A DNA stretch of 64,000 nucleotides from Candidatus Omnitrophota bacterium. GTDB taxonomy: Bacteria > Omnitrophota > Omnitrophia > Omnitrophales > Aquincolibacteriaceae. This document shows positions 1 to 51,465 of the stretch, piece after piece. The notes beneath the pieces are model-generated. The model was not told the DNA's origin and ran no database searches. It saw nothing but the letters and a program-made list of their open reading frames with translations. Position 1 is the first letter of the stretch. Each line of letters starts with the position of its first letter. The stretch covers positions 43,960 to 107,959 of the forward strand of contig JBMONI010000004.1 of NCBI GenBank assembly GCA_049324575.1, written 5' to 3'. Both the position numbers and the translations under genes were made by a program.

Positions 1-3000
1 GCTTGATAAAAAAATACAGAGGGAACATGCTCAGACCCGTCAGCAATAAGGTTAAAAAGGGATGGGCAGCCATATTGAAGCGGTATTTGTTCCAAAGCGT
101 AAGCTCATTTCCCTCATGGAGTAATTGCCAGGCACGATCTCGGATCGAGGGCGACGGATGCGTAATCGCTTTTCGGCTCCATGACAGCCACTCACGATGC
201 CGTCGCGCGTGCTCAAGGTCCCCTGTCATCAATTGGACATAGAATGTTCCCTTTTCATCGCCCGAGCGAATCAGCTCGGCTTTAGCCAAGTTCACGATCG
301 CAGAGTTCTCATTCGCCAGAAATGCGATCAAAACCGGCTTACTACGGGGATCCCCCATCATACTCAGCGCAACAGCCGCCTGGCTTTGAAATTGCGCCAG
401 CAAATTCGGATCTCGCGCCAAGGCTCCCAGATCAAAAAACCCACCGGTTTTTTTATAGACTTTCCACAAAAAAGGCGCCATATCCGGCGTGCCCCATTTT
501 CCAAGTTCCGTTGCCGCAAAAATACGTTCGCGGGGTGTCCCCGTTTTAAATTTGTCGAGCAAAAGCTCACGCGCCTCCCGCGGATCGTTTTCAGCGATCT
601 TCGAGAAAATCTTATTCACGAGGCCGGCAAAAAATTCATCCTTTGCACCGCCCCAAGAAGGACGATCATTCCAAGCCTGGAATTCAAGATCCAAAGCTTG
701 TTTTAGAAACGGGTTGTATTCGGCGCCCGAAAAAAGATGCCTCGCTTCGACCGCTGCACCACGCACCCGCCCATCCGAGTCCTTCAGAAATTCCCGCAAA
801 CGCGTAGCGAGTTCAGGATTTTTGCGCTTCGACAGCGCGAGGATCGCAGCCGCCTTAGCCTCGATGTTGGTGGATTCCAAAAACCTGATAAAAAGGGCTT
901 CCGTGTCGGCTTCTTCGATATCAGCCAATAAACCGATCACGCGCCTCACCGCATCTTGCGGGATTTCTTTCTCAGCCAGCGCATCTTCCAAATAAGCCAT
1001 GATAGGCGCCGCAGCCGCTTCTCCTTTTGCTATCAGCGCGTTCTCCAGGATTTCGTCATCAGAACTTCGGTAATGATACTTATTGGAAAGGCATTGGCGC
1101 TGATAGATCCGCCATAACAATTCTGCGGCTTTGGGATGATCGACCTTGCTTATGAGATTCACATATTTTTTTATCTCCCAGGAATGAAATGGCTTTTTTT
1201 CCTGCAATTCAAGAAATTTTCCGTAAGCTTCCAAAAAGAGCGCCGCGGTGGCCGGATTTTGAAGTCCCGCTATCGTTTCGAAGGTCTTTTCAATATCGTT
1301 TTCCTCAGAATAGGAAAGCCCTCCTTCTTTCTTTGCCTCAAGTCGTTTCAGCACGGCGCTGAGTTGGTTCATCAAAACGGCGGTCTGATACGATTCCCCG
1401 GAATATCGGTTGGGAGTTTTTTCCCATACGCGTATCGCTAAAGCCCGGACCTCCTCATTTTCATCCTTCAAACATTGGATAAGAACCTCGAGAATCGAGG
1501 GCGGAAATTGCCCCATTGTCTCCAGGGATTCGAGCGCAAACTTCCGGTTCTGCAAACTCGAAGAGCTCGCAAGCTCGGCGATGGCAAGCGCCGCTCTTTC
1601 GTCCTGGAACTTCGACAATGCGATAGCCGCTGGCACAAAGTAGGGTTTCTCCTCATGATAAATACGGATGAGCTCGGGGATCGCGCGAGGGTCACGCATC
1701 TTTGCTAATAATTCGATGACCCTTTTTCTGGGGCGTGGATCACCCTGAAGGGAGGCGATCAATGAAGGAACGGTCGGAGCTCCCATCGAAAGCAGGGTTT
1801 CTTCAGCAAAAAGCCCGAGCTTGGGATCGTTCAGCAAACGGATGAACATCGCAACACTCTCCAACGATTTAAGTTGCCCTAAGACTTTGACAGCGAGCTC
1901 TTTGCCTTCCGCGCGGGGATGCTTCTCAGCGAGTTCGATCAGTGCGGGTACAGCCGGCTCTCCGATCTGCGAAAGGACCTGGAACAAAAGTTGATCGCAA
2001 TAAGACCGTTTTCCTGAGAGACCCAGAAAATGACGGATATGTGGGATCGCCGGCTTCCCGATCTCTCTTAAGGCATTTGCATGCCATCCGAGAAATCCGA
2101 GGTTCGAACTTTCCCGCTTCATGCCTGACGCATCTAACGTGGCTTTATCCGATCTTTCATAACGCGCCGCCATGTCGTCAAGGATATCCGGCACCGAGGC
2201 TTCTCCATGCTGCACGAGACGCGCCAAGGCTTCATTCGCGGATTTTCCATTCGAAGGCCAATTCCAAAAATCGTAGCGGGTATCCGGAAGCAATGCGAGG
2301 TCGTGGGCGATCGACTGTTTTTTCAGATCCGCTTGGTCCACCGGCTCGCCGAAGATCTTGGCCGCTTCCTCGAAACTCACCGCACGGCCCTGGACAGGTT
2401 CGGGACGAGATGCCGGCTGCTCCAGGGATGGAGGCATTGCGCCAGGCGGAGGGTTCACAACCCAAGGATATTCCCGGGCGCTTGACTCCCAAGCCGCAAA
2501 GCCCAGCACCGCGGCCAGAATCGTCCACAGCCCGACGGGTTTTCGCCAGCCTGTCCGGGCAAAGCTTTCCACAGCGGCCTGCTCGCCCGCGTTTCGGAGC
2601 TCGGAACGAGGCAAGCGTCTGTTTTTCTTACGAGTCTTGCTAACTATTTGGATTAAAGAATCAAAATCAGGAAAAAGCAATGTCACCCCTTGCCATACTT
2701 CCTTGCTCACCCAATAAGTTTCTCCAGTAGGTACATCGGTAGAACCTTGGCATTGTTTTACGTCGTCGTAAAAGCCTTCATCAATATAAACATCGTGCTT
2801 CTCAGCTTGTAACAAGGCACGCGTTAGTATCGACTTAAATTCCTTGTTGGAATTATTCGTAAAAATTGCCGGCAATAATATTTCCCTTATAAACCGTCGA
2901 TGCACTCGATGTTCTTCGGCAAGATCAGGCCAACGAATCCCCTTTGTTTCCGCCGTCCATGTTCTCTCTCCCACCTCTAATTTTTTTAACAGCGATTGAA

Positions 3001-6000
3001 TTTGCATTTCTTTGGCACGCCTGCTCAATATCGGGGGAACTCCGACTTCCAGAATGTCACAGCACGGGATCCCCGATCTAACTAATCGCATCCCCATTCC
3101 GATCGCAAACTCGAATTCCCTTAGACTTCTCGCACTCATATGCAAAATGGGAATAGCCTTTTCAGTCGCATAATCAACCGGCATATGCTTCTTTTTTAAT
3201 TCAACAAACAGCTTTTCTACCATCTCGATTTTCTTTTTTGCGTAAGCATCCCCGCACATTGCCATCGCCCGAAGCGCTCCTACATGAAAAGCAAGGAGCG
3301 ACTCCCTTTTTAGAATCTCCTTCGCAATAGCAGAAAGCTTGTTTCGCATAACAGCCCGATCGCTCTCCATGGCATCTAGAAAAACCATCAAATCCATAAT
3401 TTGATCTATGTGTCTCAAAAAATCTTGATTCTTTATGTTAATCACTTTTCCATGGAGCAGTTTTACAATCGCACGCTGTTTCACCAAGCGAATCATGTTG
3501 GGCGGAGCCCCAAATCGCCTTAAGGATTCCATGTTCTTTTCCGTGTTCAAAACTTCATTGCCAGCGAAAAGCCATCGATCTGTCAGCATCAATTTTAATG
3601 AATCCTTGCGGTTAAGTTTTTTCAAAGTTAGCAAATCCCGCGCTTCCAGTGCTGCTAGCAACCGAAAATCCTTTCCAACACACCACCGCCCAAGCTGCAA
3701 ACATGCGGAAATATAAATTTTTATCCATTTGATTACTTCTATCATCTTTAAAACAGCCCCAGCAATTAAACCAAATAATATAATTCCGCCAAGAAATATC
3801 AGTAATCCGCTCCCCAAAAGAACTCCGACCATGGAAATGGGGGCCTTTTTAAACCGAAGCTTCATTCTTTCTTTAAAAGGCAAGCTTGGCATAATGGCAT
3901 CCGCAGCGGCCGCTTGGATAACTCCTAAGTAGGGCGCCTTTGAGAACTTCGTTAGTTCCGAAAAGTTTTCAGGCGAGCGCATAGCCTTTGAAGAATTTAT
4001 GATAGCTGCTTTAACTCCGTTCGCCACGAAATCATCGTTTTCGATGATCCCAAAGAGTGTCACAATTACATCCGGATCGTCGAAATTTCCCAGTGCTTTA
4101 GCCGCCGCGGAAGCAACTCTGCTATCCTGATCGCGCAGTGCTTGTACGAGATCAGGAACCGCAGAGGGCTCATGAATACGCTCTAGCTCAAATACGGGAC
4201 TGTCAGTGAAAAATCTATGTCGATAAAATGGCTCTGCGTGAATCTGTTCTATCAAATTAGAGATTTGCGTGCTAGAAGCACGAATAGCTTCAGAAGAAGA
4301 ATTTGATGGATCATCATGGGCATTGAGACTTACCAGTGATATAACAAGACCCACTATTCCGATCATTGCAGCCCGAATTATCCTGTCAAAAACCCCACGG
4401 GCTCGCCTCGGGAAATTTTTTAATACCGTTGTCGAAGATTGCTTAAAATCAGATCGATCTCTCATTTCGGCACGCGATGAAAAAGCTTTATTGCCCAGTT
4501 TCTGCGGCAATACCAACGACCCTCTTCCTGAAATCCAATCAACTTCGCTAAGAGAATAATCCTTAAAACCACCTAGTCCTTGATCGAGATGGCGGGCGAG
4601 GATGGGATAGTCGGTGGACGCCCCCAAAGATTCGGTCAGCCCGGCGATCGCACGCAGGTGGCGCTGAACCGGGCCGTCCCCCACCCGGGTCGCCATGAAA
4701 AAGTCGGACGGCTGGCGGGTGGCCCGCGCCGGAAGGAAAGGCGTCTCGAAGCGGTACACTCCGCGCGTCATGATCTCGCGGTAATAAGCCTGGTGGACTT
4801 TGTCCGGCCCCGCGATACGCGGGGAGATCACGGCGTAGGAGATCTTTTCTTTCCTGAGAAGCGCTTTGATACGGCTCGCGTGGAATCCGCCGAACACCAG
4901 AATAGCGGAACTCTCGGCGGGATCTTTCAGGAATTCCCGGATCGGCCCTCCAAGCGCCTCGTCGCGCGCTTCGGCCGTTTCGTAGAACCGGGAGGCCGGT
5001 CCGATATTCCGCTCCCAGGCCCGCGAAAGCACGACCGTGCGCCCGGTCAGCGAAACAATGAAGTCAGCGATCGCCCGGGTATCGATCGCCTCGAGCGCTT
5101 TCCGGACGGCGCCGTACTCCTCTTGCGTGAGCTTGACATCGTTCAATTTGCCGATCAGGGATAATTCCCGGTGATAGCGAAAGATCGTCCGGTCGCGCTC
5201 ATTCCCGAGAAATCGGTGGGCGATTGCTCCCTCCATCTCGGCGGTCTCCCGGAAGATCATCGCCGAATCCAGCGCGTTCAATCGATCGGCTTGTTTGGGT
5301 TCGCGGGAATCAGCGATCGCAAGCAAAAGCGACACGGCCGGATATTGATCCGAGAACGGCTTGGCCTCAGCCTCGGGGTCTTCGCCCCGCATTAAAACGT
5401 TTTCAAGACCCCGAAGATAGGAAAGCAGAGGGATCTTCCCCTCTTCATACCGCTCTTTCATCCCGATCCACGCCTTCAGGTCTTTCGAAAAGAAGCGGTG
5501 AACAAGTCCCCGTATCTCGGTCATCAGGTCCCCGAGATCCGCCTCGATCTCCTTTTTAAAACGAGCGGAATCCCGGTAGCGCTCGATGTTCTCGCCGTAG
5601 AGCTTGAGATCGTCGACCCCGATCAGGCGCCAATGGCTGGCGCCCAAATCCGAATCGCTAAATTCTAATTCCGAAACAAATGCTGAATTCGCATGTTCTG
5701 GATCCAAAGCATGCATTGTTCCGTTTTTCGGATTTTCTTTTTTCGAAATTGTTTCGAATTTCGGGTTTCGGATTTCGTGCTTGTTCCGATTGATGTGCGC
5801 GTACTCGGCGCCGCCGATCCGGAGTTTGTCGAGAAGATAATAGGAAACCCGCTCGCGCAGGACCGGATCCTTGATGAATCCGAAAAATTTCTCGGTGGGC
5901 ACCGGGCCCTGATACCCTTCCTCAAAGACCGTGCGGATGCCTTTCTCGCGCACTAAATGGTCGATCAGGCCTGCGATATGCTCCTGGGCTTCCAGCGAAT

Positions 6001-6271
6001 CATGGGCGTCCTGGATGAAATAGACCGTCTTGCCGGAGGTCCCCTCGGCATATTCGTCGAGCGTCCCCAAAGCTTCCGGAAGAAGGCGGTTTTCAGAGGC
6101 CGGAGGCTGCGCGGAGGTCCGCGAACCCGACAGCGCCTGGGATGCGTAACCGGAGGGATCGAGCGCCGTAAAGGTCAATAGGACGAAAGCCGCGATCGTC
6201 TTTTGGAACGGAAAGCGGACCGAAGGACGGAACCCTCGAACGACCTTTGCTCGGTGAATTCCAGGGGTCAT
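1..6271 (-). CDS. Large multidomain protein, partial (C-terminus beyond the window start): N-terminal domain paralogous to the giant protein's N-terminus (tentatively ChaN/Tiki/TraB-like), central low-GC segment encoding a TM helix, C-terminal PBS-lyase/HEAT repeats
   Basis: Manual reverse-complement translation from ATG at 6271-6269 (GAGGGG 3 nt upstream) runs to position 1 with no stop over about 2,090 codons. It is absent from the supplied track because there is no in-window stop. N-terminus: MTPGIHRAKVV...KTVYFIQDAHDSLEAQEHIAGLIDHLVREKGIRTVFEEGYQGP...VFGGFHASRIKALLRKEKISYAVISPRI, mirroring HVFIHIQDAHANEEAQHNIARILDHF...IVTGGFHTPGIERYLREHGYSYWVVTPAI in the giant protein. A hydrophobic span APISMVGVLLGSGLLIFLGGIILFGLIAGAV falls in the low-GC part. 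HEAT-like repeats sit at 1..2600, e.g. AVPALIELAEKHPRAEGKELAVKVLGQL and DPRAIPELIRIYHEEKPYFVPAAIALSKF. Hand translation, so local errors are possible. Confidence 0.6.
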   Translation of the reverse strand, partial: MTPGIHRAKVVRGFRPSVRFPFQKTIAAFVLLTFTALDPSGYASQALSGSRTSAQPPASENRLLPEALGTLDEYAEGTSGKTVYFIQDAHDSLEAQEHIAGLIDHLVREKGIRTVFEEGYQGPVPTEKFFGFIKDPVLRERVSYYLLDKLRIGGAEYAHINRNKHEIRNPKFETISKKENPKNGTMHALDPEHANSAFVSELEFSDSDLGASHWRLIGVDDLKLYGENIERYRDSARFKKEIEADLGDLMTEIRGLVHRFFSKDLKAWIGMKERYEEGKIPLLSYLRGLENVLMRGEDPEAEAKPFSDQYPAVSLLLAIADSREPKQADRLNALDSAMIFRETAEMEGAIAHRFLGNERDRTIFRYHRELSLIGKLNDVKLTQEEYGAVRKALEAIDTRAIADFIVSLTGRTVVLSRAWERNIGPASRFYETAEARDEALGGPIREFLKDPAESSAILVFGGFHASRIKALLRKEKISYAVISPRIAGPDKVHQAYYREIMTRGVYRFETPFLPARATRQPSDFFMATRVGDGPVQRHLRAIAGLTESLGASTDYPILARHLDQGLGGFKDYSLSEVDWISGRGSLVLPQKLGNKAFSSRAEMRDRSDFKQSSTTVLKNFPRRARGVFDRIIRAAMIGIVGLVISLVSLNAHDDPSNSSSEAIRASSTQISNLIEQIHAEPFYRHRFFTDSPVFELERIHEPSAVPDLVQALRDQDSRVASAAAKALGNFDDPDVIVTLFGIIENDDFVANGVKAAIINSSKAMRSPENFSELTKFSKAPYLGVIQAAAADAIMPSLPFKERMKLRFKKAPISMVGVLLGSGLLIFLGGIILFGLIAGAVLKMIEVIKWIKIYISACLQLGRWCVGKDFRLLAALEARDLLTLKKLNRKDSLKLMLTDRWLFAGNEVLNTEKNMESLRRFGAPPNMIRLVKQRAIVKLLHGKVINIKNQDFLRHIDQIMDLMVFLDAMESDRAVMRNKLSAIAKEILKRESLLAFHVGALRAMAMCGDAYAKKKIEMVEKLFVELKKKHMPVDYATEKAIPILHMSARSLREFEFAIGMGMRLVRSGIPCCDILEVGVPPILSRRAKEMQIQSLLKKLEVGERTWTAETKGIRWPDLAEEHRVHRRFIREILLPAIFTNNSNKEFKSILTRALLQAEKHDVYIDEGFYDDVKQCQGSTDVPTGETYWVSKEVWQGVTLLFPDFDSLIQIVSKTRKKNRRLPRSELRNAGEQAAVESFARTGWRKPVGLWTILAAVLGFAAWESSAREYPWVVNPPPGAMPPSLEQPASRPEPVQGRAVSFEEAAKIFGEPVDQADLKKQSIAHDLALLPDTRYDFWNWPSNGKSANEALARLVQHGEASVPDILDDMAARYERSDKATLDASGMKRESSNLGFLGWHANALREIGKPAIPHIRHFLGLSGKRSYCDQLLFQVLSQIGEPAVPALIELAEKHPRAEGKELAVKVLGQLKSLESVAMFIRLLNDPKLGLFAEETLLSMGAPTVPSLIASLQGDPRPRKRVIELLAKMRDPRAIPELIRIYHEEKPYFVPAAIALSKFQDERAALAIAELASSSSLQNRKFALESLETMGQFPPSILEVLIQCLKDENEEVRALAIRVWEKTPNRYSGESYQTAVLMNQLSAVLKRLEAKKEGGLSYSEENDIEKTFETIAGLQNPATAALFLEAYGKFLELQEKKPFHSWEIKKYVNLISKVDHPKAAELLWRIYQRQCLSNKYHYRSSDDEILENALIAKGEAAAAPIMAYLEDALAEKEIPQDAVRRVIGLLADIEEADTEALFIRFLESTNIEAKAAAILALSKRKNPELATRLREFLKDSDGRVRGAAVEARHLFSGAEYNPFLKQALDLEFQAWNDRPSWGGAKDEFFAGLVNKIFSKIAENDPREARELLLDKFKTGTPRERIFAATELGKWGTPDMAPFLWKVYKKTGGFFDLGALARDPNLLAQFQSQAAVALSMMGDPRSKPVLIAFLANENSAIVNLAKAELIRSGDEKGTFYVQLMTGDLEHARRHREWLSWSRKAITHPSPSIRDRAWQLLHEGNELTLWNKYRFNMAAHPFLTLLLTGLSMFPLYFFIK
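5655..5800 (-). repeat. AT-rich low-complexity insert with short direct repeats (ccgaaa/ttcgaa) inside the conserved N-terminal domain of the 1..6271 gene
   Basis: ...ccgaaacaaatgc...tttttcggattttcttttttcgaaattgtttcgaatttcgggtttcggatttcg... In frame it gives NRNKHEIRNPKFETISKKENPKNGTMHALDPEH, with no counterpart in the giant-protein paralog. Confidence 0.5.
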
Positions 6272-6424
6272 ATTCCCCTCTTTTCGTGTTCTTTGTGAAA
6301 AACAGAATCCACCGAAAAGTTACCCGTTTTTTTAGTGATTACAAGAAGCGGACACAAAAAAACCATGATTTTTCAGAAATTTTTTGAGTAGTCGTTAAAA
6401 AGGTTTGAAAAACTTTTTCGTCAA
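6272..6424 (-). promoter_or_regulatory. AT-rich intergenic region, putative promoter/5' UTR of the 1..6271 gene
   Basis: Marked drop in GC between the terminator hairpins and the ATG at 6271. No confident -35/-10 assignment. Confidence 0.25.
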
Positions 6425-6490
6425 AAACAAAACTGCGGCCATGCAGTCCGCCTACTTCTGTAGGGCAGGTTTAAACCTGCCCTACAGGTT
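6425..6490 (-). terminator. Putative intrinsic terminator of the giant gene: 30-nt perfect palindrome followed by a second hairpin and a T-run
   Basis: CTGTAGGGCAGGTTTAAACCTGCCCTACAG at 6458..6487 lies 28-57 nt downstream of the TAA at 6517-6515. The minus strand then reads CTGCATGGCCGCAGTTTTGTTTTTG (5-bp stem, T-run). Confidence 0.5.
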
Positions 6491-6514
6491 TTGAGGAACC
6501 GACTCGAATCCCGA

Positions 6515-9500
6515 TTACGCGGACTGCGCGACGATTTGGGCCATTTCGAACTTCTGCGCGATCATTTGTTCCACGGTCAACTGGATCACATTTGCACCGC
6601 CCAGGCTTAGATCCTCGTCGGTCACCACGATGATCTCGCCTTCGATCGGCACCGCCGCCGTCAAGAGAAGTCCGGTATTCTTTTCCACAGTCGCTTTCAT
6701 CGCATAGACACGCCGTTCGGTCACCGCACCCTGTTCAGCAAGAGCCTCAGCCAGAATCGCTTCGACCGGCTGTGCGATATTGACAAAGGCAACACGCGCA
6801 TCGCGGATCTCGCCCTGCAGCATAAGCAGTTTGTCACTGGTCGCGCGAACGATCAGACGGTCTTTCTCGCCAAGGCTCGCAAGCCGGTCATTTAGTTCCG
6901 TGCGCTGATCCACACTCCAACCTGTCTGCCAATCAATGACAGTGACACCGCCCTGAGCAACGCCACTCGCAACCACCGCCTGCCGCAACGCTTCATTGGC
7001 CGCATTGGCCTGAGCAAGCATCTGGACCACGCGCATCTCAGTCGTACTTGTAAGGGCATCCCCAAGCCCCGCAGGCATCTCTTCCCGAAGTTCCGCACGC
7101 GGGCCCGGTTTCTTCTTTCCTTTCGGCTGTTGAGCCGGCACTGAAGCCTTTTTCGCCTCCGTCGTTGAGGGCCGCTGCCCCGTAGCAGGCGCCACCGAAC
7201 TCTGGGGTTGGGCTGGCAACTGTCCTTGTAGCGCCTCCGAAGATTTCGGGGATCCAGTTGCCGTGGCTGGCGGTATTTGCGACTTTTTATCTTCTTTATC
7301 TTCTTTATCTTCTTTCGGGAAATCCCTCTTGTCTTTTTGATACGTCAAGTAAAACGCCACCAGATTCCCCGTCTGGGCAAGCACAAGGAAGATCAACGCA
7401 ACCAACGGGATCCAATGATGCGCAGAAACAACATAAAGTATCCCCGCGGCGAAGATTGGCAACCCAAAGGCGACCCCAGACGCCGCGACACCCAGCCCGA
7501 TCCCTAAGGCCTTAAGCGCTTTTTGCCAGAAGCTGATCCTGGCCAAAACACCTTTTAATTGTTCCCGATCATTCACATATTCGAACAGATTAGGCTCGAA
7601 ATGATCCATAAATTCGGACGTTTTATTTTTTGAACTGAAGGAATCGCGGATCTCAAAAAATATTTCCAGGAATTTGGTCGTCGCATGCAACACACGCCCC
7701 GCCATGCTGGTCAGGATCAGGCCGGAAACGAATAACGCAAAAATATTTCCGAAGCTTCGTCCGACCTCTCCGGCAATGCCGGGAAGGGCCCATTGCTGCA
7801 TGATCCCCAGCGCATAGACAGACCCCGAGATCAACGCCGCCCCGATCAGGAAAAAGCCGATCGCGCTTCCCAAATGCAGCCACCCGGTCTGGATCCGATG
7901 CAAGGATACCCTTGCAATATCGATCTCCTTCGGCTTTTTCGGCTTAATGATCTGCTCCTGCCGGTATTGGCTGAAATCATGTTTGACGCTCTCCCAATAA
8001 GACACCCAAAAACTCGCTTTCCTGGTGATCGGACCAATCCGGAAATTGCGGAACTTATTCCACCACTTTACGGCAGGGGCTCCAAGATTTTGCCAAAAAT
8101 GCGGATAACGCGGCTCCTGGATGGAGCTCGCCTTACGTTCGAAGGAGGTCCATAAATACATGAAACCGGTCAAGAGCGCTGTCCCTACCGCCGTGATCAA
8201 TAGAATACCGCCCAAAGTCGCCACGATCGCCATGCCCGCAGAGAGACCGAAGATCGAATGGAAAAGCACGAAAATCACAGGCGCCGAAAGGATGGCGGAG
8301 CCTCCCACCAGAATCGCCAAGGCGGTTGCGAAATTTTTGATGCTGAATGGACGGACCGGAGATCCTTGAAGCTTTCGCATAAGCTCGAAATACGGAAGAC
8401 TGGCTTTGTCGATCGCCTTCCTCTCCCCCGTTCCCAGCGCCGTTTCATAGGCCGCTACCATTCCCTTCATCGCCGTCACACGCGCTTCGACCATGGCCGC
8501 TTCGGAGGCTTCTCTTTCCGGCAATTCTTTCTTGGCCAGGGCCGCCATTGCCTCGAGGGTCTTGGCCTTGGAGAGGTCGATCCTCGAATGGATGTCCCAA
8601 TCCCGCGGTTTCGCCGAAAACCACATCATCATAGGTCCAAAACTCCAACTCCCGATCAAAAGGATCATCCAGTTGATCACCTCCACCTGCGGCGACAAGA
8701 GCAGGATCGAAAGGATCGTGCCAAGCGCCATCCAGTACGAAGGGGTCATTAGATGGAAAGACGCTTTCAAGGTCAGGAACGAGGTATTTCCGCCCACCGC
8801 GGTCATGATCCCCCAGGGAGACGGCTCCGGACGGATCTTGACGAAAGAGGCAACGCTTTTGATCAGCATAGAGCCAAAGGTAAATCCGGCCCAGAGCATG
8901 AATAGCCATTGGGACACGACGGGATGACTTGTGAGAAACGCTGTTAAAGGGGCCCATCCTAATTGCTGAAGCCCAGGCAGTATCACCGCCCACAAATGCG
9001 CCAAAGCGGGAGTGAAGAGGATAAGACCCAAAGCCGCGAGATAAGCCGTAATCGCCACGGTCAAAGCCAACCAACCGACCGCAACAAAGCGATTCGACAG
9101 CCGATGCAACGTCATTATCGCTAAAACGACCGCAATGCCTATGGAAATCATGAAAATATAGGGCGCATAGGCTCCGCTGATCCAAAGGACCGAAACAAGG
9201 ATGGGCGCAACCGCAATAACAACTCCGAGCAACCCTTTCCCGATCTGGCCTTTGTCGGCGAGCGTATCGCGAATCGTGGTTTTCCAAGAGGGTTTCGTCG
9301 CATCGAGTGGATGAATACCTTCCGCCCAGTTATGCAGAAAGTTATTCACCGCCAATTTGGCCTCGATCACGAAGTTGTTCAAATACAACTGGTCCATGAA
9401 AAACTGCGCGATCTTGTCCCGCAGCGAAATGGACGGAATGGTCCCCGAGAACGCCCGGTAAATAAAGAAGATCACGAATGAGAACACCGCCACCACGGCT

Positions 9501-18500: not shown

Positions 18501-21500
18501 TCGAGTTCGCTCATCGGTGTAGCCGCAGGATCGAATCCAGGAACTGCATCCGGATTGTTCGCAAGGAAACGATAGGCATAGACAAGAACGAGGCCCAATT
18601 TGCGCATATCCACTTTCACATCCGTCGTTGAAGCCGTATCCATGCGAAGGCCGGTATTTTCCCGATACGAAAGCAGGGTTTCCAGGAACGTCCCCAACGG
18701 CAATGACAGGTCATAATCCTTGGAGATGGCATCGATATAAGGAGAAATATCCGCATAAGCCGCTGCAAAAGGACTCCCCGGGCGGAGCAGGTAGTTCATA
18801 TATTGGATCGCGACCAGCAGTTGGGCCTCCTTGATCTCGGTCGTCATCCCCAAAGACTCCAAAACACGCACTAGTACCGGCATCGTCAGAACGTCCATTT
18901 GGATATCCGGATCGCTTGGCTGGATCCCGATGACGATCGATTTTCCGCCTTTGGGCGCCGTCACGGTGATCGGGGTCTCGTGAGGGGTCCGGATCGTAAC
19001 TGCCCGAGTGATCTCTTCATCCGGTCTTCCCTCGATGCCCGTTACACGCATCGTTCCCTCTTTTTCCGTAACGGTAATCGCAACTTTTTTGAATTCATAC
19101 GGGACCGTTGCGGCATCATCCGCAAAAAATGAAACCGCCCCGTCCGGATCGACCTTGATCTTTTTCACGCCATCGAAAAGTTTCCGTGCCGTATCCTTAT
19201 CCAGTTCGATGTCAGTGGTCAGATCCAGGATCCTGTTTTCTTTAGTTCCATCTTTCTTCGTCACTTCAAAAACGACCCGAACCGTATGGGGGGTCATCAA
19301 AGAAAACCGGAATTCACCGGCATAGGTTTCATTGGCCGGGTCCGCAGCCGCGAGATCAAAGGCCTGCGGCAACTGGACCCCGAAAAGCCTTTGCGCAAGC
19401 ACTCCAAGTGCATTGGCCAATTCGACCTTTGCAACCGGAACCTGGGCATCCGAAACAACATCCTTCGGAAGGACCGGCATGACCATTTTATTGCTAAGTC
19501 CGTCGGCAACTTCCTGTTTATCGAAAGGCTCCGGCATCGGCTTTTTCTCAACCGCCGTTCCGGGAGTCGACTCAGCCGCTCGCGTCTGTCTTTCCGCGAT
19601 CGCCCCCAACTGACCCGCCTGTTCCGCCAAGCGGGCATATTCTTCCGTAAATTCCTTCGAAGGCTGATAAGGGACCGCGACGGGTCCTCTTGTGACGGCC
19701 AATTTCCCCTGGAGAAGCGCTTCGAGATAATTCGCGGCTTTTTCCACGTCGCCTCCGGCGAGCAAAGCGCGAACGGACGCCTCATACCATTCGCCTTCAC
19801 GTTGGATGTATTTCCCAGGGACCATATCGCCAAGGATGAATCCTGAGGTTCGGGCGCGCAGAAAATCGGCGTTGTCAAGCGCGATCGGAAGATTGAAGGC
19901 ATAGACCGAAGCGGCGCGGATCAGTACCTGATATTGAAGCAGGATCCGGTACGCTTCCTTAAGCCTGACGTCGTCGGTCTGCATCGAAGAAAGCTTGGCG
20001 TCCAGAGCCGCGATGGCATGCTGGATGGAAGCTTGCGCATCGACCAAATTGACCGCGACTTCTCCGTAAAGGAGCGTGCTGGTATTGATCGAAAGATGCG
20101 AATGGATCCAACGGCGTATGCCGGTCAGACGGCTCCTGAGTTCATTAGCTTCTGTCCCCTTCAAATGCGCGTTCAAGATGTTATCCCTCTCCAGAACGCT
20201 CAACACCTTATCCGAACTGTCAGCCAGAAGACGAAGGACATCCTGTCCGGCAAGCGGCATCTTGGGAAGCCGGAGCTCTCGGTCGGGATCAAAGCCCAGC
20301 CATCGCAAGAAGTTCTGCCGCGCATTGTCGACAACCTTCGCCTGGGTATCCACGGCCAGTCCCGACTCTTCGGCGATATCCGCGATCCTCTTTGTCGTGT
20401 CATCCGGCGTGGACGGTCCCGCAAGGGCATCACGCAAGGCAGAATTCCTCGAAAAACGGTATGTGTTGAGATCAAGGATCGCCGCGTGGGTTCTCAGATC
20501 CACGAACATATTCCGTCCGAGGGCGATCTGCTGCCCTCTTTCCGCGGCGTTGAGGAACCCGTGCTGGTCGGCCTGCAGACGGTCGATCCCGGGTTGAAGG
20601 TTATAGAACAATAATTCGAGCGGTTCGCTGATCTGAAGCGCAAGGTCCATGTTAAAAGGCATCAAGGACACCGATTGCTGCAGCCACATGCGATCGGTCA
20701 AGCGCTCGACCCAGCTCCGGCCCGCATGCCAGCGGTGATACAACCAGCGATGCGCGGCCACTTGATCGTCGGCAAAGCGATCCACAAGCCCATAAGCTTT
20801 CGCCGTATCCAAATCAAACGGTGTCGTGGCGCGGTCATTGAGCCAACCCGCCGTTTTAGCGCCGCGACTCGCTTGCGGAGGTTTAGCCGCCATCCCGGTC
20901 ACCATCAAACGCCAGGCAAGATCGCGCACATGGCCAAAATCGCGGAGCTCCTCGAGATCCGCCTCCAAAAGCCCTATCCGAAGCTCGAGCACATTACGGT
21001 CGGAACCTGCTCCGGTCTTTTTACGATTCTCCAACTGCTCAAGTTCTCCGCCGTGCCGCACTCCCTGAGGATCCGTATAGCCGGCGATCTCCCCGATCTT
21101 TTTATTCGCCGCCTCACGCTGTTTTTCCGTATTTTCAAGTGTTCGGCCCATCTGCTCGCGCTGAACAGCCTGCTCACGAACGAGGTCGAAATAACCCATC
21201 GTTTCCGCATGCCCCTCCGTGATCGAAGTCGCTTTTTCGACCTTAACACGATACTTCTTCCCGCCATCGAACCAGCTCCAAAGGATCCCTAAAAAGGACT
21301 TTTGTTCCGCTCCCTGAGCCTGCTCTTGCGCGAAAAGACCGTCCATCGCAAAGTAAGGGGCATCCCCGTAGGCCGGGATCACGATGAAATCGATCCCGCG
21401 GTTGCGATAGGCAAATCCCATCTGAGACAAAGCGACGGCCAGTTTGCGTTTCCCCCACGATTCCTCGGAACCGGCGCTGAACGATTCCCCCGGAAACCGG

Positions 21501-37008: not shown

Positions 37009-37045
37009 GGGGTATTATACACAAATCCCCCGCCTTGACTACGCT
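37009..37045 (-). promoter_or_regulatory. Possible sigma70-like promoter for tRNA-Ala (perfect TATAAT -10; weak -35)
   Basis: The minus strand reads ...GTAGTCAAGGCGGGGGATTTGTGTATAATACCCCG... about 35 nt upstream of the mature tRNA 5' end. The -35 element is poor. Confidence 0.25.
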
Positions 37046-37881
37046 GTTTTGGAAACCCCGGCCTCCGCCAGATAAGCCGCCAGGGCGCGCAGGGACTCCT
37101 CCCGTTCCTTCTCATGAAAGATCTCGTGATAGAACTTGGAAAAAACCTTCATGACCTTGCGCGGACTCCGGATCTTGGAAAAGATCTCCTTCGTGGCTCC
37201 GAAATCCACGACCCGCTCGTCCCCCGCCAGCAATCCGTAGACCGGGAACGGGACGTTCCAGGAACCCGATCCGAGCAGATAGTCGCTTTGATCGATCATG
37301 GCGTGAAGAAGGCGCGTCGAGACCTTGCGGCGCACGAACGGGTCCTTCTTGTATTTTTCCATTTCCTCCTCGTCATGCGTAAGGAACGGAGGATAGACCG
37401 GATTCATATAGGAAAAACGCGGAATGGATTCGCTGAACGTCCGGTTGAGGTGTTTCAGGATCTTCGGGATCACGATCCCGAAGCAGGGCGAAAAAAGGAA
37501 AAGCGCCCGGATGCGCTCCGGCCGGCGGAGCGCGTAGGAGAAAGCGACCAATCCGCCGAGGCTGTTCCCGGCAACCAGGTAGGGCCCGGCCGCCTGACGC
37601 TCTTTTTCGAGCATCTCGATGAAAGCGTCGGCGTCCTTCAAAAAATCTTCGAAGGTCTCGACATACATCTCCTGCCCCTCGGAGCGGCCGTGGCCCCGGT
37701 AATCGAAGGCGGCGGTCGAAAAGCCGAGCTTCTCGGCCTCATGATCGACATTGGCAAAGCGGCCGGAATGTTCGCCGAGGCCGTGCAGGATCAAAAGCCA
37801 CGGTTTGCCCGCTTCCCCGGCACGGACCCGGTAAAAAAGCCGGGTCCCGTCGAAAGTGCGAAAATATCCCATGTCCTTCAT
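37039..37881 (-). CDS. Alpha/beta-hydrolase, lysophospholipase/monoacylglycerol-lipase-like
   Basis: MKDMGYFRTFDGTRLFYRV...LILHGLGEHSGRF...GNSLGG (GxSxG nucleophile elbow). ATG at 37881-37879 overlaps the upstream gene's TGA (ATGA overlap). The track's longer N-terminal extension to 38391 is Arg/Gly-rich and overlaps the acyl-CoA synthetase gene, so I reject it. Confidence 0.8.
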   Translation of the reverse strand: MKDMGYFRTFDGTRLFYRVRAGEAGKPWLLILHGLGEHSGRFANVDHEAEKLGFSTAAFDYRGHGRSEGQEMYVETFEDFLKDADAFIEMLEKERQAAGPYLVAGNSLGGLVAFSYALRRPERIRALFLFSPCFGIVIPKILKHLNRTFSESIPRFSYMNPVYPPFLTHDEEEMEKYKKDPFVRRKVSTRLLHAMIDQSDYLLGSGSWNVPFPVYGLLAGDERVVDFGATKEIFSKIRSPRKVMKVFSKFYHEIFHEKEREESLRALAAYLAEAGVSKTA

Positions 37882-39710
37882 AGGGCCCCCGACGCCGCCT
37901 GAGCCTGGCGTCCGCGCGCATAAAGCACTTCGACCGCCGCATGATAATGATCGGCGATCACGCGGCGTCGCAGTTTCATCGTCGGCGTCATTTCTCCCCG
38001 CCCCTGAGTGAATTCTTCCTCGATCAGCGCCACGAATTTCACTTGCTGGAAGGACGGGCAATCGCTCAAACGGCCCCGGACACTCGTTTCGACATGCTCC
38101 AGGATCTTCGGAGCTTGAAGAATTTCCGCATAACCCGTTTCCCGGATGCCGAGATCGCGGGCCAGCGAAAGGATCATCTCCCGTTCGGGCACAACGAGCG
38201 CCACCAGATAGGGCCGCCGGTCCCCCAGGATCACGACCTGGCGAATCAAGGGATCCTCCAGAAGACAGGCCTCGAGCGGCTGCGGCGCGATATTCTTGCC
38301 GGCCGCGGTAATAATGATGTCTTTCTTTCGGTCCGTGATCCACAAATAACCGTCCGCGTCGAGACGCCCGATGTCGCCGGTGCGGAACCAATCGCCGTCG
38401 AAGCTCTCTCGCGTCACCGCTTCATGGTTCCAATAACCCTGCATGACGCAAGGCCCCCGGGTCAGGATCTCCCCGTCCTCGGCGACTTTCACCTCGACGC
38501 CGGGAATACATCGGCCGACCGAGCCGAAGCGCACGTTTTCAATCGCATTCGCCGAGATCACCGGCGAGGTCTCGGTGAGTCCGTAGCCTTCCAGAATCAC
38601 CCACCCGATCGCATCGAAGAATTCCGCGATCTCTTTGCCGAGCGGAGCGCCTCCGGAAACGAAAAAGCGGATCCGGCCTCCGAGCTCGGCGCGGATCTTC
38701 CCGAAAAAGAGGGCCTTGCCGATCCCGTAGGCCAGAAGCGCGAGCCAGTCCACCCGCTCCCCGCGGCGGCGATTGGCCTTTACGGCGCACGCGTTCTTGA
38801 GCAGGGCCAGGATGAGGTTCCGCAGAAAACCGGGTTTGGCGCGCACGGCCCGATCGATCTTCTCGCGGATCTTCTCGAAAAACCTCGGGACCGCGATCAC
38901 GACCGTCGGACGGACCCGGCGGACATCCTCGGCCACGGTCTGCATCCCGCGAGCATAGGCGATCGTTGCGCCGGAGGAGAGCATGAAATAATAACCGGCC
39001 ATCCGTTCAAAAATATGGCTCAGCGGAAGGAAGGAAAGACACGTGTCGGTATCCCGGATATGGATCGGGGTCCTGGACCCCTCGATATTCTTTAGAATAT
39101 TCCCGTGGGTCAGCATCACGCCCTTGGGCTCCCCCGTCGTCCCGGAAGTGTAGATCAGGGTCGCGAGATCGGCGCTCGCCACACGCACGAGCTGTGTCCG
39201 CACATCGAAACCCGCGTCCGGCTCTTCCGCGGCAATCTTCATAAAATCTTCGAAGCGCACCCGTTTCGGATGCTCCCCTTCCACATCATGGAAAGTGATG
39301 ACCTTGAGGATCTGGGGATTGCGGTCGAGAAGCGGCAGGAGTTTTTTCCACTGCTCGGGGCCGGAAATAAAAAGGACCTTGATCTCCGAATCGCGCAAAA
39401 TGTAATCGATCTCGAAGGCCGCCGTCGTCGGGTAGACTGGAACGACGACCGCGCCAAGCGCTAGCGCAGCCAGATCGGCATAGGTCCATTCCGGCATATT
39501 CTCGGATAAAATGCCGACGCGGTCCGTTTTACTGATGCCGATCTTCCATAAGGCCTGCGCCGTCCGGACGACTTGGCCGGCCCATTGCGTCCAGGAAAGC
39601 GCACGGCGTTTTCGGGGATCCTGGGGATCGAGGGTCAGGAGGGCCTTCCGCTTTCCATACCGCTCCGCGGAAAAGAAGAACATCTGAGCAAGGTTCTGTG
39701 GCTCCGTCAT
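37878..39710 (-). CDS. Long-chain-fatty-acid--CoA ligase (AMP-forming acyl-CoA synthetase)
   Basis: AMP-binding signature LIYTSGTTGEPKGVMLTHGN; also GYGLTETS, TGDIGRLDADGYLWITDRKKD and MKLRR. Start chosen at ATG 39710 (MTEPQNLAQMFFFSAERYG). The track's alternative upstream ATG is at 39788. Confidence 0.85.
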   Translation of the reverse strand: MTEPQNLAQMFFFSAERYGKRKALLTLDPQDPRKRRALSWTQWAGQVVRTAQALWKIGISKTDRVGILSENMPEWTYADLAALALGAVVVPVYPTTAAFEIDYILRDSEIKVLFISGPEQWKKLLPLLDRNPQILKVITFHDVEGEHPKRVRFEDFMKIAAEEPDAGFDVRTQLVRVASADLATLIYTSGTTGEPKGVMLTHGNILKNIEGSRTPIHIRDTDTCLSFLPLSHIFERMAGYYFMLSSGATIAYARGMQTVAEDVRRVRPTVVIAVPRFFEKIREKIDRAVRAKPGFLRNLILALLKNACAVKANRRRGERVDWLALLAYGIGKALFFGKIRAELGGRIRFFVSGGAPLGKEIAEFFDAIGWVILEGYGLTETSPVISANAIENVRFGSVGRCIPGVEVKVAEDGEILTRGPCVMQGYWNHEAVTRESFDGDWFRTGDIGRLDADGYLWITDRKKDIIITAAGKNIAPQPLEACLLEDPLIRQVVILGDRRPYLVALVVPEREMILSLARDLGIRETGYAEILQAPKILEHVETSVRGRLSDCPSFQQVKFVALIEEEFTQGRGEMTPTMKLRRRVIADHYHAAVEVLYARGRQAQAASGAL

Positions 39711-39723
39711 GGGCTCTCGAGAA

Positions 39724-40446
39724 TCAAAACTCTTCGTTCTCAGGAGGAGGTTTAACCGCCACGGTTCCCGCCGCGGTCCCGGCGTCATCCTTCACGGCCG
39801 GAGAAGCCGTCGTGGAAACCGTTTGTTTGGGAGATCCCGTTTTGCTTACGGCCGTCTGGGTCTCAGTTTTAACGGCCGCAGCCGTTTTTTCCGCGCCGGC
39901 CGTCAAAGTCGACGTCGCTTTCGCGAGCGGCGAAGAACCCGGCTGTTTCAAGTCCGGGGCCGCGGCTTGGGCATCCTTCTTTCCGGCTTCCGCAGGGCTC
40001 CCGGCATCGGCTTCCTCTTTGCGGATCTCTTCCAGGATCCGCTCATGCACATTGGCCTGGCGCATCATCTGGCTCAGGGCCGCATTGCCCGCCGCGCCGG
40101 CTCCGCTCGTCTGGATCGCGCTGACTTGCCGCAGGAGGCGCGTGATATTCGTATCGACGCCGCCCGCCGGACCGGCTACGGCCGGGGTTTTCGTCGCCGT
40201 GTAAATCTTCGGAACCTTAGGAATGCGGTAGACCGTCGGAACCGCCCCGGCTTTCATCGCTCTGGGAACGGCCGTCCCCGCACCGGTATTGAGATCCCCC
40301 ACTGCGCTGGACGCGCTGGTTTCGACCGTTTTCGATGTTTCGGCGGTTTTAGAACGGCTTGCCTTGGGCTTCAACGAAAATAACATGATAAGGACAAGGA
40401 TGCCGATCCCCCCGAGGATAAGCGCCGCAACGATCTTGTTCTTCAT
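39724..40446 (-). CDS. Hypothetical membrane-anchored protein with a low-complexity Ala/Thr/Lys-rich extracytoplasmic region
   Basis: Start MKNKIVAALILGGIGILVLIMLFSLKP (ATG 40446-40444, ATGA overlap with the upstream stop). The rest is TAETSKTVETSASS...AAAVKTETQTAVSK low complexity. The track ORF extends further upstream into the enoyl-CoA hydratase gene, which I reject. Confidence 0.5.
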   Translation of the reverse strand: MKNKIVAALILGGIGILVLIMLFSLKPKASRSKTAETSKTVETSASSAVGDLNTGAGTAVPRAMKAGAVPTVYRIPKVPKIYTATKTPAVAGPAGGVDTNITRLLRQVSAIQTSGAGAAGNAALSQMMRQANVHERILEEIRKEEADAGSPAEAGKKDAQAAAPDLKQPGSSPLAKATSTLTAGAEKTAAAVKTETQTAVSKTGSPKQTVSTTASPAVKDDAGTAAGTVAVKPPPENEEF

Positions 40447-50070: not shown

Positions 50071-51465
50071 CTATTTCGAATGTCTGAACCCCGGACTCAA
50101 TATCCCGAGGCATGCTCCCATCAAAGCACACAATAATAACGACATATTCACATGGTCAAGCATAAAACTAATCGACGCATGCCCCAGGATCATCAATACC
50201 GGAACAAAAAAACCCATGCCAAAAAGAAACTGGAATCGACTTGGCGTCCTTTGGAGCATAAGAACAGACTCGATGAAAAATACTAGAATAAAAAGAAAAT
50301 AGAACCAAGCGCCGAGACCCTCTTCCGCGAGAATGGTCAAATAATGGTTCATGGCTTTATAATCCGCCATGTAAACGTTTTGGGGAGAGGTTTTTTTGAA
50401 AGTCTTTCGGTACGGATAATATCCTTTGGTGCCGACACCCCACACGGGGTTTTCTTTGAACATTTCTACCGCATAGTTCGCCCCCCGAATATTATGCGCG
50501 AACGATTGCGGCTCTTCCATCTCATCTTGGAGAGTGCTGACCTCTTGCAACGTTGCCTTAAAATCAATGTTCGTTTTCAAAAATAAAAATAATAAACAGG
50601 CTATTAAAACGCATGGGATGAAGATCCGTCTCGATCGATATTTTAAAATACAGCCCCCTATGAATGTTATTACTCCCATGAGAAAAAAAATGATGGTCCC
50701 ACGTGAATTGAACGCCAAAATCGCAATAAATGAACTACCAATGGTTAGGGCGGGTATTAAAATCTGAATCAGATGGATCTGCCCTTTAATCGGCCGCATC
50801 TTTTTTTCATCATCGAATTGCATGAAGGAATAAATAAAATAACTTATGGAAAGGAAGAAACCAACAGCGAGGACCTCTCCAATCCAGTTCGCGTGGAATC
50901 GATTAGAAATAAGGTATTTTTCAACCGCAGGATGGAAATAAAGCCAATCGGAAGCAAAGGGATTAAGCCGAATGTCATATGCAGAAAGACTTCCCCTCGT
51001 TATTAGTGAAGGCAAAGATAATGAGCATAAGAATAGAACCATCCCTATCGAAACCGAAACGATACCCACAGCTCGCTTTCGAGAAGCAGAAAACACATAA
51101 GCAAGCGCCATGGTTCCTAGACAGAAAAACCAGACGATCGGCTGCTGCGTAAAATTCTCAACAAGAACGATTTTTACGTCTTTGTCTGGCCCATTACTTG
51201 TCGCTGAAAGGAAATAGGCAAATCCCAATCTTATGATTTGGTAAATGCAGAATACACAAAACATCCCAAAACATAATGGGATTCTACGAAGGCTTAAACG
51301 CACATCGCTATTGGCGAAAACAAGAAACAAAACGAGGGTGGAAAAAACCAGTAAACAGCGCAACTCCGCTAACGCAAAAGAATCGTAACCTTTCGAAAGA
51401 AACAATGCTCCGAGCAAGGCTGAGAAAAAAAAATACGGAATTTGTCTCAGATGGCTATTGACCAC
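50071..51465 (-). CDS. O-antigen ligase-like (Wzy_C family) polytopic membrane protein, cassette 3 partner; visibly lower GC than its neighbours
   Basis: 10-12 hydrophobic helices. Wzy_C signature NHYLTILAEEGLGAWFYFLFILVFF in the C-terminal part. GTG start at 51465. Paralogous to 55286..56746 and 59610..61031. Confidence 0.7.
   Translation of the reverse strand: MVNSHLRQIPYFFFSALLGALFLSKGYDSFALAELRCLLVFSTLVLFLVFANSDVRLSLRRIPLCFGMFCVFCIYQIIRLGFAYFLSATSNGPDKDVKIVLVENFTQQPIVWFFCLGTMALAYVFSASRKRAVGIVSVSIGMVLFLCSLSLPSLITRGSLSAYDIRLNPFASDWLYFHPAVEKYLISNRFHANWIGEVLAVGFFLSISYFIYSFMQFDDEKKMRPIKGQIHLIQILIPALTIGSSFIAILAFNSRGTIIFFLMGVITFIGGCILKYRSRRIFIPCVLIACLLFLFLKTNIDFKATLQEVSTLQDEMEEPQSFAHNIRGANYAVEMFKENPVWGVGTKGYYPYRKTFKKTSPQNVYMADYKAMNHYLTILAEEGLGAWFYFLFILVFFIESVLMLQRTPSRFQFLFGMGFFVPVLMILGHASISFMLDHVNMSLLLCALMGACLGILSPGFRHSK

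Follow-up and report, generated by a model that had tools for sequence, protein, structure and literature searches.

A low-GC module in a very large Omnitrophota gene, probably acquired from a lower-GC lineage

Within a very large gene of a Candidatus Omnitrophota MAG, at one end of the 64,000-nucleotide stretch of DNA analysed here (the window), a block of 659 codons has a codon usage that is foreign to the host and like that of a much lower-GC genome, and both of its compositional junctions coincide with protein-module boundaries. The best explanation, to which we assign a probability of roughly 0.7, is that the block is a complete module recently acquired by recombination from a lower-GC (about 43%) Omnitrophota lineage. 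Acquisition is judged recent because the codon usage of the block has not yet ameliorated, and, with a GC3 gap of about 0.3, the donor would have to be distant. The recipient gene is modular, membrane-threaded and Archaeovorin-like, in a genome of about 56-60% GC.

The gene lies on the minus strand and encodes MFZ5801692.1, a protein of 5,458 aa. Its frame is open from position 6319 to the window edge, with an ATG at 6271; a sequence-only reading that had the gene end at position 1 was wrong, since 3,368 further codons lie outside the window. The neighbouring ORF of 9,994 aa, arranged in tandem, is a paralog. The protein carries HEAT_2 repeats (Pfam, E 3.8e-45) and a weak Radical_SAM match (24.4 bits, below the cut-off of 29.5). 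Many enzyme domains are found in its homologs, and a 1,191-aa downstream enzyme region had no protein match at E<=1e-10. The features of the gene in the window are as follows; TM-like segments were called solely by a Kyte-Doolittle hydropathy scan, and P0130 and P0135 are other large proteins of the group.

4586..6271, minus strand: N-terminal part, codons 1-562, with a positively charged N-terminus, a hydrophobic signal/anchor helix and the conserved N-terminal domain; GC3 0.70-0.76
2609..4585, minus strand: low-GC block, codons 563-1221, one complete protein module; GC 0.43, GC3 0.41, four-fold-site GC 0.42
4460..4474, minus strand: RAEMR motif within the block (codons 600-604), the second motif of the doublet found after the N-terminal domain in many family members
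4316..4396, minus strand: hydrophobic TM-like helix, aa 626-652 (Kyte-Doolittle scan)
4031..4195, minus strand: HEAT_2 repeat, aa 693-747, the best stretch of the Pfam HEAT_2 match
3722..3847, minus strand: hydrophobic stretch of 42 residues (aa 809-850), whose homologs in P0130 and P0135 are paired TM-like segments
2792..3334, minus strand: conserved all-alpha core, aa ~980-1160, with invariant G(I/M)PxCD, EVGVP and HRxFIR motifs (alignments A2 and A3)
2594..2608, minus strand: RSELR motif, codons 1222-1226, coinciding exactly with the downstream compositional junction and inside the changepoint interval
2..2593, minus strand: host-like downstream part within the window, with TM-like segments at aa 1244-1262 (borderline) and aa 2071-2090 and a region rich in HEAT repeats; GC3 0.55-0.66

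The presence of an in-frame low-GC block inside a GC-richer gene, as first proposed from the sequence-only reading, was confirmed by three measures, and the GC3 profile of the gene is not uniform. Whole-block GC is 0.434, against 0.582 for the N-terminal domain and 0.622 for the next 120 codons; GC3 is 0.41, against 0.76 in the N-terminal domain and 0.60-0.66 downstream; and GC at four-fold sites is 0.42, against 0.77, 0.64 and 0.735 in other parts of the gene (the 14 other genes of the window also give 0.735). The surrounding gene had been described as about 60% GC, which holds for the first 120 downstream codons but not for the flank beyond them, at about 52%. GC1 and GC2 are also shifted, and the shift spans all 659 codons, well beyond the TM segments. 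The lowest GC3 values of the window are those of the block, matched only by one Wzy_C gene, which as a whole forms a second low-GC island. The block contains no in-frame stop, where 2,000 shuffles average 42 (minimum 21) and the other five frames hold 17-57, so that an open frame through these AT-rich codons is indeed as improbable by chance as had been suspected.

Codons seldom used by the host are frequent in the block: ATA makes up 31% of Ile codons (4% in the host), TTA 21% (4-5%), CTA 12% (1-2%) and AGA 21% (5%). The RSCU of the block correlates neither with the rest of the same gene (0.02) nor with the other window genes (-0.05); values for low-GC Omnitrophota genes of the same family are about 0.54-0.65, and the highest of all comparisons, 0.73, is with the homologous low-GC module of P0130. 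The encoded sequence had been called rich in Lys, Ile and Asn, and this is true of Lys (7.6% vs 5.1%) and Ile (7.9% vs 4.9%) but barely of Asn (3.3% vs 2.7%).

The edges of the block were set by maximum-likelihood changepoints on GC3, followed by a codon-by-codon reading. The changepoints delimit codons 561-1222, from plus-strand position 4591 (support 4582-4600) to 2605 (support 2584-2662), with support intervals 7 and 27 codons wide, and in the codon-by-codon reading the composition changes between 4586 and 4585, after codon 562, and again at codons 1219-1223 (about 2608). Both junctions are thus sharp, within about 5 codons, and the abrupt switches originally noted at 2640 and 4560 were correct to about 30 nt (measured 2609-4585). 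The downstream junction falls on the RSELR motif, an instance of the pattern R[SA]E[VLM]R that is about 70 times commoner in the family than expected by chance, recurs many times per protein, delimits modules in more than 100 family proteins examined and co-occurs strictly with the N-terminal domain described below. The upstream junction lies off-motif, about 38 codons before the next one, and corresponds to the end of family homology, i.e. of the conserved N-terminal domain. In many homologs this domain is followed by motif doublets spaced 34-70 aa; in the host protein the first motif of the doublet is degenerate (QRHLR, codons 544-548).

Low GC and sharp edges are also typical of mobile DNA, and the block could in principle be a selfish in-frame insertion such as an intein, intron, IS or MITE, or DNA of phage or plasmid origin. 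Pfam finds only HEAT repeats in the block, and Hint, endonuclease, transposase and reverse-transcriptase domains are absent; a search for repeats around the junctions gave only short chance matches and no terminal inverted repeats or target-site duplications; no Rfam family matches positions 1-8000; and there is no match in the phage, plasmid and viral collections. The intein, IS and intron readings were rejected on the Pfam, terminal-repeat and Rfam results. Moreover, the relatives of the block that do exist are internal modules of other large Omnitrophota proteins, and a mobile insertion is the least probable of the explanations considered here.

An assembly artefact, in which a piece from a low-GC population was spliced into a high-GC contig, deserves consideration since the source is a short-read MAG. 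It is nevertheless very unlikely. Two in-frame junctions at module boundaries together with a 659-codon open frame would hardly be expected from a chimera, and genomes of 43% and 58% GC would probably share no long exact k-mers through which assembly graphs could be mis-joined. In addition, the NCBI MAG contig (161,963 bp) and an independent Logan contig of SRR32167788 (66,985 bp) show no difference over 11,271 bp, both junctions included.

The block had been thought to hold the only strong TM helix of the gene; it has in fact two to three hydrophobic helices, and TM-like segments also occur outside it, at the N-terminal signal/anchor, at aa 1244-1262 (borderline) and at aa 2071-2090. The stretch at aa 809-850 is probably a two-helix hairpin. 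HEAT_2 repeats explain most matches in a search of representative proteins, and a search with the block alone against an index of 5.8 billion proteins, proposed earlier as a check, was of limited yield, with only two weak HEAT matches. HEAT-like repeats precede the all-alpha core, for which an AF2 model has pLDDT values of 80-96; the core has no known fold relative, Foldseek against PDB giving only designed helical repeats (E>=0.067), and positions 5-137 of the A3 profile match alphaRep/HEAT designs (E 2e-11). The module would be a membrane-threading helical scaffold, composed of a TM helix, HEAT repeats, a TM hairpin, HEAT-like repeats and, as its last part, a putatively novel Cys-Cys-Asp-containing alpha-helical core.

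The core of the block was found only in P0130, P0135 and P0248, all large proteins of Omnitrophota, as internal modules. The best relatives of the block are 30-43% identical, and none above 43% (this value over 139 aa only) was found in about 15 billion proteins, nor any close relative in JGI metagenome contigs, IMG/VR, phage records or plasmid records; tblastn of the non-HEAT parts against 85 loci gave no further instance. The single new locus from the metagenome, virus and plasmid scans, L088, is the C-terminus of P0130 again, recovered from a different sample. The genes of P0135 and P0248 have an overall GC3 of 0.40 that does not drop at the module. In P0130 the module is itself a low-GC3 block (0.43, against 0.54 and 0.62) whose edges have RSEMR and RAEIR motifs within their support intervals. 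In two low-GC genomes the composition of the core is native; in P0130, the second of the higher-GC hosts, it stands out.

An equally valid reading of the P0130 module, with its low GC inside a higher-GC host, is that the composition is intrinsic to this type of module. Low GC would then result from selection, e.g. for slow rare codons aiding co-translational membrane insertion, or from AT-biased drift in a fast-evolving, weakly constrained module. The close similarity in codon usage between the two modules (r=0.73) and the TM helices in the block fit such an origin, as does the poorly conserved HEAT region downstream of the block, where four-fold-site GC is also lowered (0.64 vs 0.735). Against it, the shift covers the whole block and all codon positions rather than the TM segments alone, junctions of about 5 codons are unexpected from gradual drift, and poorly conserved regions occur in the 9,994-aa paralog as well, yet its composition is homogeneous.

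Evidence bearing on the same question was obtained from the family as a whole. A simple jump statistic at motifs gave only a modest signal (17% vs 10% in the top decile) and was replaced by a test of between-module GC3 variance, in which the true motif boundaries of 57 genes, the window gene excluded, were compared with 1,000 circular shifts. The variance at the true boundaries exceeded that of all 1,000 shifts (z=8.1), and at four-fold sites only z was 4.8-5.1, with or without the N-domain segment. Motif-delimited modules are thus units of GC3 heterogeneity, each with its own composition. For 28 strongly deviating modules the sign of the deviation anticorrelates with host GC3 (Spearman -0.72, p=1e-5), being lower in 13/14 cases in high-GC hosts and higher in 4/5 cases in low-GC hosts, i.e. 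deviating modules shift toward the middle of the family GC3 range. A universal AT pull would not produce deviations in both directions, and an intrinsically low GC appears unlikely as the explanation of the block. Acquisition by recombination, already put forward in the sequence-only reading as a horizontally acquired or recently inserted domain, gains support from the foreign codon usage, the sharp junctions at module boundaries, the occurrence of the core as native sequence in low-GC Omnitrophota and the composition of modules across the family. Weighing against it, neither a donor nor a close ortholog with the gene as it was before acquisition turned up in the collections searched, and the upstream junction is off-motif.

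The N-terminal domain upstream of the block (~500-560 aa) is common to more than 200 Omnitrophota proteins and to the adjacent 9,994-aa ORF. In the collections searched its closest relative is 46% identical; among named homologs and fetched loci nearly all carry the label Omnitrophota or Omnitrophica, and many others are unlabelled. Invariant residues are H90, E118 and H464 (in GGFH); E117 is almost invariant. The domain shares the alpha/beta fold of the Tiki/TraB/ChaN/erythromycin-esterase (EreA) superfamily, a likeness at the fold level only: it differs by a large helical insertion, and its profile gave nothing significant against Pfam and PDB sequences. The domain is probably exported. Cleavage of RSExR sites in cis by this domain was also considered and set aside because of this probable export, most motifs being predicted to be cytoplasmic.

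As to how acquisition may have proceeded, the block starts in the inter-motif spacer after the N-terminal domain and brings its own RAEMR, and for this reason the donor gene was probably a family member with the same layout. Selection would keep only those recombinants that are broken at module boundaries. Both replacement of an earlier module and addition of a new one would fit the arrival of the block, and the parity of TM segments, with which two self-consistent topologies agree, does not separate insertion from replacement. In its present place the module may tether the exported N-terminal domain and help to set the topology of downstream modules.

Comparable arrangements are known from other bacteria. 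In Rhs/YD-repeat and CdiA polymorphic toxins a conserved core is joined to a variable tip of different, usually lower, GC, and the boundary is a conserved peptide motif (PxxxxDPxGL or VENN). The Omnitrophota gene resembles them in having a conserved N-terminal part followed by a probably swapped segment of sharply different GC, with a short peptide motif at a junction. It differs in that the block is internal and not a C-terminal tip and in that each protein has many copies of R[SA]E[VLM]R; moreover, Pfam shows neither Rhs/YD or FHA repeats nor a toxin domain, and an immunity gene next to it is likewise lacking. In the mosaic pbp genes of Streptococcus and Neisseria, homologous sequence has been replaced from close relatives at 5-25% divergence. 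An in-frame foreign block in an otherwise native gene with intact reading frame is common to both cases, but here the block is a distinct module without detectable homology to what family members carry at that place.

The host protein is a relative of the "Archaeovorin" giant proteins. Archaeovorin-type giants of Omnitrophota have been described (West-Roberts et al. 2023, bioRxiv 10.1101/2023.11.21.568195), and a secretion-system locus upstream and pilZ downstream are among the features expected of the type. An Omnitrophota host, a very long ORF, HEAT repeats and several TM segments are shared with them; enzyme-like modules may be shared as well, the Radical_SAM match being weak. The host protein is smaller, at 5,458 aa, and no type II secretion-like (T2SS) or T4P genes are present in the 27 kb upstream within the window, which encode AMP-binding, hydrolase, ECH, patatin, SPOR, GNAT and Wzy_C proteins. 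The same preprint gives the cleavage points of the giants as unknown and domain incorporation as an open question; RSExR motifs, an N-terminal domain common to the proteins, mosaic composition and the exchange of modules are not mentioned in it (West-Roberts et al. 2023, bioRxiv 10.1101/2023.11.21.568195).

Mosaic genes and islands of foreign GC are well known; here the foreign piece is a whole module of the Omnitrophota giant type, with edges that match the punctuation of the protein. This suggests, as direct evidence at the level of sequence, that these very large genes grow and diversify by exchange of modules between lineages. A bolder, rather doubtful proposal goes further: R[SA]E[VLM]R would be a candidate processing or docking site that marks both functional modules and points of exchange between lineages, large Omnitrophota ORFs would be arrays of cassettes, and the block would be a freshly swapped cassette seen before amelioration. 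If true, this would supply the cleavage points of Archaeovorin-type giants and a mechanism of domain gain. The motif also provides candidate sites of processing and a principled choice of where to cut the proteins for structure prediction.

On the minus strand an open reading frame extends from 6319 up to the window's left edge, with its ATG located at 6271; along this gene, sliding-window GC content at third codon positions (GC3) changes from 0.65-0.83 in codons 1-540 to 0.27-0.53 in codons ~560-1200 and 0.55-0.66 after that. A two-changepoint likelihood fit placed the low-GC block at codons 561-1222, between plus coordinates 4591 (support 4582-4600) and 2605 (support 2584-2662), with fitted GC3 of 0.76, 0.41 and 0.60 along the gene. 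Inspection of individual codons puts the upstream switch directly after codon 562, between ...ILARHL and DQGLGGFKDY..., and the downstream switch at codons 1219-1223. The block is coding, since its 662 codons hold no in-frame stop, compared with an average of 42 in shuffles and 17-57 in the other five frames. The fit, the codon reading and the open frame thus confirm the in-frame low-GC block described in the sequence-only reading. The features discussed below are as follows.

6515-36499: adjacent 9,994-aa ORF, beginning with the N-domain (the conserved ~560-aa N-terminal domain of the family) at 28-29% identity
4460-4474 and 2594-2608, minus strand: R[SA]E[VLM]R motif copies inside the window gene
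First element of the block: linker carrying RAEMR
aa 626-652: hydrophobic helix, after the linker
aa 693-747: HEAT repeats (Pfam)
aa 809-850: 42-residue hydrophobic hairpin, after the Pfam HEAT repeats
After the hairpin: HEAT-like repeats; the profile of A3, an alignment of the block's core relatives, matches alphaRep designs (E 2e-11)
Last element of the block: all-alpha core with invariant G(I/M)PxCD, EVGVP and HRxFIR motifs

At four-fold sites, the block has a GC content of 0.42, compared with 0.77 for the N-domain, 0.64 for the HEAT region, and 0.735 for both the enzyme region and 14 other window genes. Codons ATA, TTA, CTA and AGA make up 12-31% of their families in the block versus 1-5% in the host; GC1 and GC2 are also reduced, and the encoded sequence is richer in Ile, Lys and Met. 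The 9,994-aa neighbour is homogeneous in composition, and the lowest GC3 in the window is that of the block and one Wzy_C gene. The latter, an O-antigen-ligase-like gene (50071-51465, minus strand), forms in its entirety a second low-GC island with sharp edges at about 50070 and 51490 (GC 0.416, four-fold-site GC 0.50, ATA 23%, TTA 23%, AGA 24%); its two paralogs are host-like (55286-56746) and intermediate (59610-61031) in composition. A 289-aa ORF (61108-61977, minus strand) with no Pfam match, GC3 of 0.48 and ATA at 44% of Ile codons may be another acquired gene. A smaller patch in the HEAT-rich region of the block's own gene (~1050-1350, aa ~1650-1740) encodes Lys/Glu-rich sequence (GC 0.39-0.42, GC3 0.42-0.47).

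Exhaustive representative search recovered the full-length protein, P0123 (MFZ5801692.1, "HEAT repeat domain-containing protein", 5,458 aa), from a Candidatus Omnitrophota MAG, on a 161,963-bp contig; the block occupies the protein's residues 571-1230. The same gene is present in an independent Logan assembly of run SRR32167788 (locus L005), which matches the window without a difference over 11,271 bp spanning both junctions; this makes an assembly chimera unlikely. More than 200 large proteins (about 1,200-3,600 aa), those named being nearly all from Omnitrophota, match residues ~30-560 only. This N-domain is N-terminal in all of them, mostly preceded by a hydrophobic helix, and is followed by very varied domains (radical SAM, epimerases, ROK, methyltransferases, PEP-utilising enzymes, NUDIX, HEAT). 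In 80 family loci fetched from GTDB representative genomes, N-domain identity reached 46% at best, with several paralogs per genome. A variable loop of the N-domain (~5645-5780, aa 165-209) has pLDDT <50 and locally lower GC3 (about 0.48-0.55), and some homologs carry unrelated insertions at this site. Homology with the C-terminus of P0130, another large Omnitrophota protein, was noted for the final ~190 residues of the 5,458-aa protein, encoded outside the window at L005 ~20800-21374 (VFVDAxDF...VVYNER...SIHLS...GTLAxALLWA; loci L086 and L088), which suggests that the family has a conserved terminal module. Partial synteny was seen between 37039-39788 and the P0005 locus of another Omnitrophota genome: at both sites, genes encoding an AMP-binding enzyme and an alpha/beta hydrolase lie ahead of large genes, at P0005 a family member plus a ~9.8-kaa giant ORF, whose order and number are unlike those of the window.

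The block's junctions coincide with module boundaries. The downstream junction falls on RSELR at residue 1222, and the upstream one, at the end of family homology, lies in the spacer between QRHLR (544-548), a degenerate first motif, and the block's RAEMR (600). The motif R[SA]E[VLM]R, of which no description was found in the searchable literature, occurs in P0123 at residues 600, 1222, 3140, 3612, 3875, 4332, 4363, 4961, 5266 and 5324, i.e. 10 copies in the L005 gene (5001-21377), and five times in the giant ORF. Across 120 listed homologs its rate is 1.8 per 1,000 aa against 0.026 expected, about 70 times chance; one copy, often a doublet, nearly always stands just behind the N-domain, in varying sequence surroundings. 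Its nucleotide sequence differs among copies, and it is therefore conserved at the protein level. No copy was found in 18 ordinary window genes (8,553 aa). Of the 150 HEAT proteins that the representative search returned, two bear the N-domain and carry 1.6 motifs per 1,000 aa; the other 148 have a mean of 0.085, and 13 of their 16 motifs are in P0134. Excluding this protein, which at a guess may be an N-terminally truncated family member, leaves 0.016, the chance level.

Composition follows these boundaries across the family. Between-module GC3 variance with the true motif boundaries exceeds that of all 1,000 circular shifts (z=8.1, 57 genes, window gene excluded), and the effect stays at four-fold sites only, with the N-domain segment in or out (z=4.8-5.1); N-domain GC3 does not differ systematically from the rest of the gene (mean +0.016). 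When each gene was scanned for its one most deviant block, the window gene ranked as the most extreme of 60 (z=-10.5), and other genes also have deviant blocks, of either sign, with edges mostly near a motif. A GC3 deviation above 0.20 was found in none of 348 modules of 57 other family genes, against 0.22-0.30 for the window block. Other candidate exchanged modules, motif-bounded and off their hosts by 0.16-0.20 in both directions, are aa 534-910 of L011 (P0001), aa 2056-2381 of L007, aa 1314-1702 of L014 and aa 0-938 of L075.

Outside the HEAT repeats, the block has only three relatives, all large Omnitrophota proteins.

P0130 (6,366 aa): 30% identity over 301 aa
P0135: 43% identity over 139 aa
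P0248: 35% identity over 155 aa

The P0135 and P0248 genes have GC3 of 0.40 end to end, and the module is therefore compositionally native in both. In P0130 the module, located near the C-terminus and not behind the N-domain, is itself a low-GC3 block (0.43 versus 0.54 ahead and 0.62 behind), and the support intervals of both edges contain a motif (RSEMR at 5519, LPRAEIR at 6168). This keeps alive the main rival explanation, an AT-richness inherent in this type of module. Under a universal AT pull on particular modules, however, the sign of deviation would not depend on the host, and yet across 28 strongly deviating modules it anticorrelates with host GC3 (Spearman -0.72, p=1e-5): 13/14 in high-GC hosts are lower and 4/5 in low-GC hosts are higher. 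Such anticorrelation is a prediction of exchange between lineages differing in GC. Relative synonymous codon usage of the block is uncorrelated with that of the rest of its gene (r=0.02) or other window genes (r=-0.05), and correlates with that of low-GC family genes (r=0.54-0.65) and most highly with that of the P0130 block (r=0.73). Pfam domains, junction repeats and Rfam checks gave no mobile-element hallmarks beside the block, and insertion of a selfish element is accordingly unlikely. Searches of protein, metagenome-contig, IMG/VR, phage and plasmid collections yielded no closer relative or donor.

Horizontal acquisition of a domain, as first proposed from sequence, is thus supported by foreign codon usage, junctions at module boundaries and the family-wide module pattern, with the refinement that the block would constitute a single complete module within a modular, Archaeovorin-like protein. 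Its most likely source is a lower-GC Omnitrophota family member of the same layout, and the transfer would be recent enough for donor codon usage to persist. It may have replaced an earlier module or been added; the hydropathy scan is compatible with two self-consistent topologies and thus with either event. The block's content points to a membrane-threading helical scaffold, not an enzyme; its all-alpha core was modelled with pLDDT 80-96, and a search with the model gave no significant structural relative.

The long ORF, the N-domain with diverse downstream domains and the giant neighbour fit the "Archaeovorin" type of Omnitrophota giant protein; the preprint on these proteins states that where they are cleaved is not known and leaves open how they take up new domains (bioRxiv 10.1101/2023.11.21.568195). 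Known phenomena of the same kind are mosaic genes and the Rhs-like GC discontinuities between core and tip, where a peptide motif marks the boundary; the Omnitrophota setting and the motif-delimited module structure appear undescribed so far, and R[SA]E[VLM]R may represent a processing or docking site.
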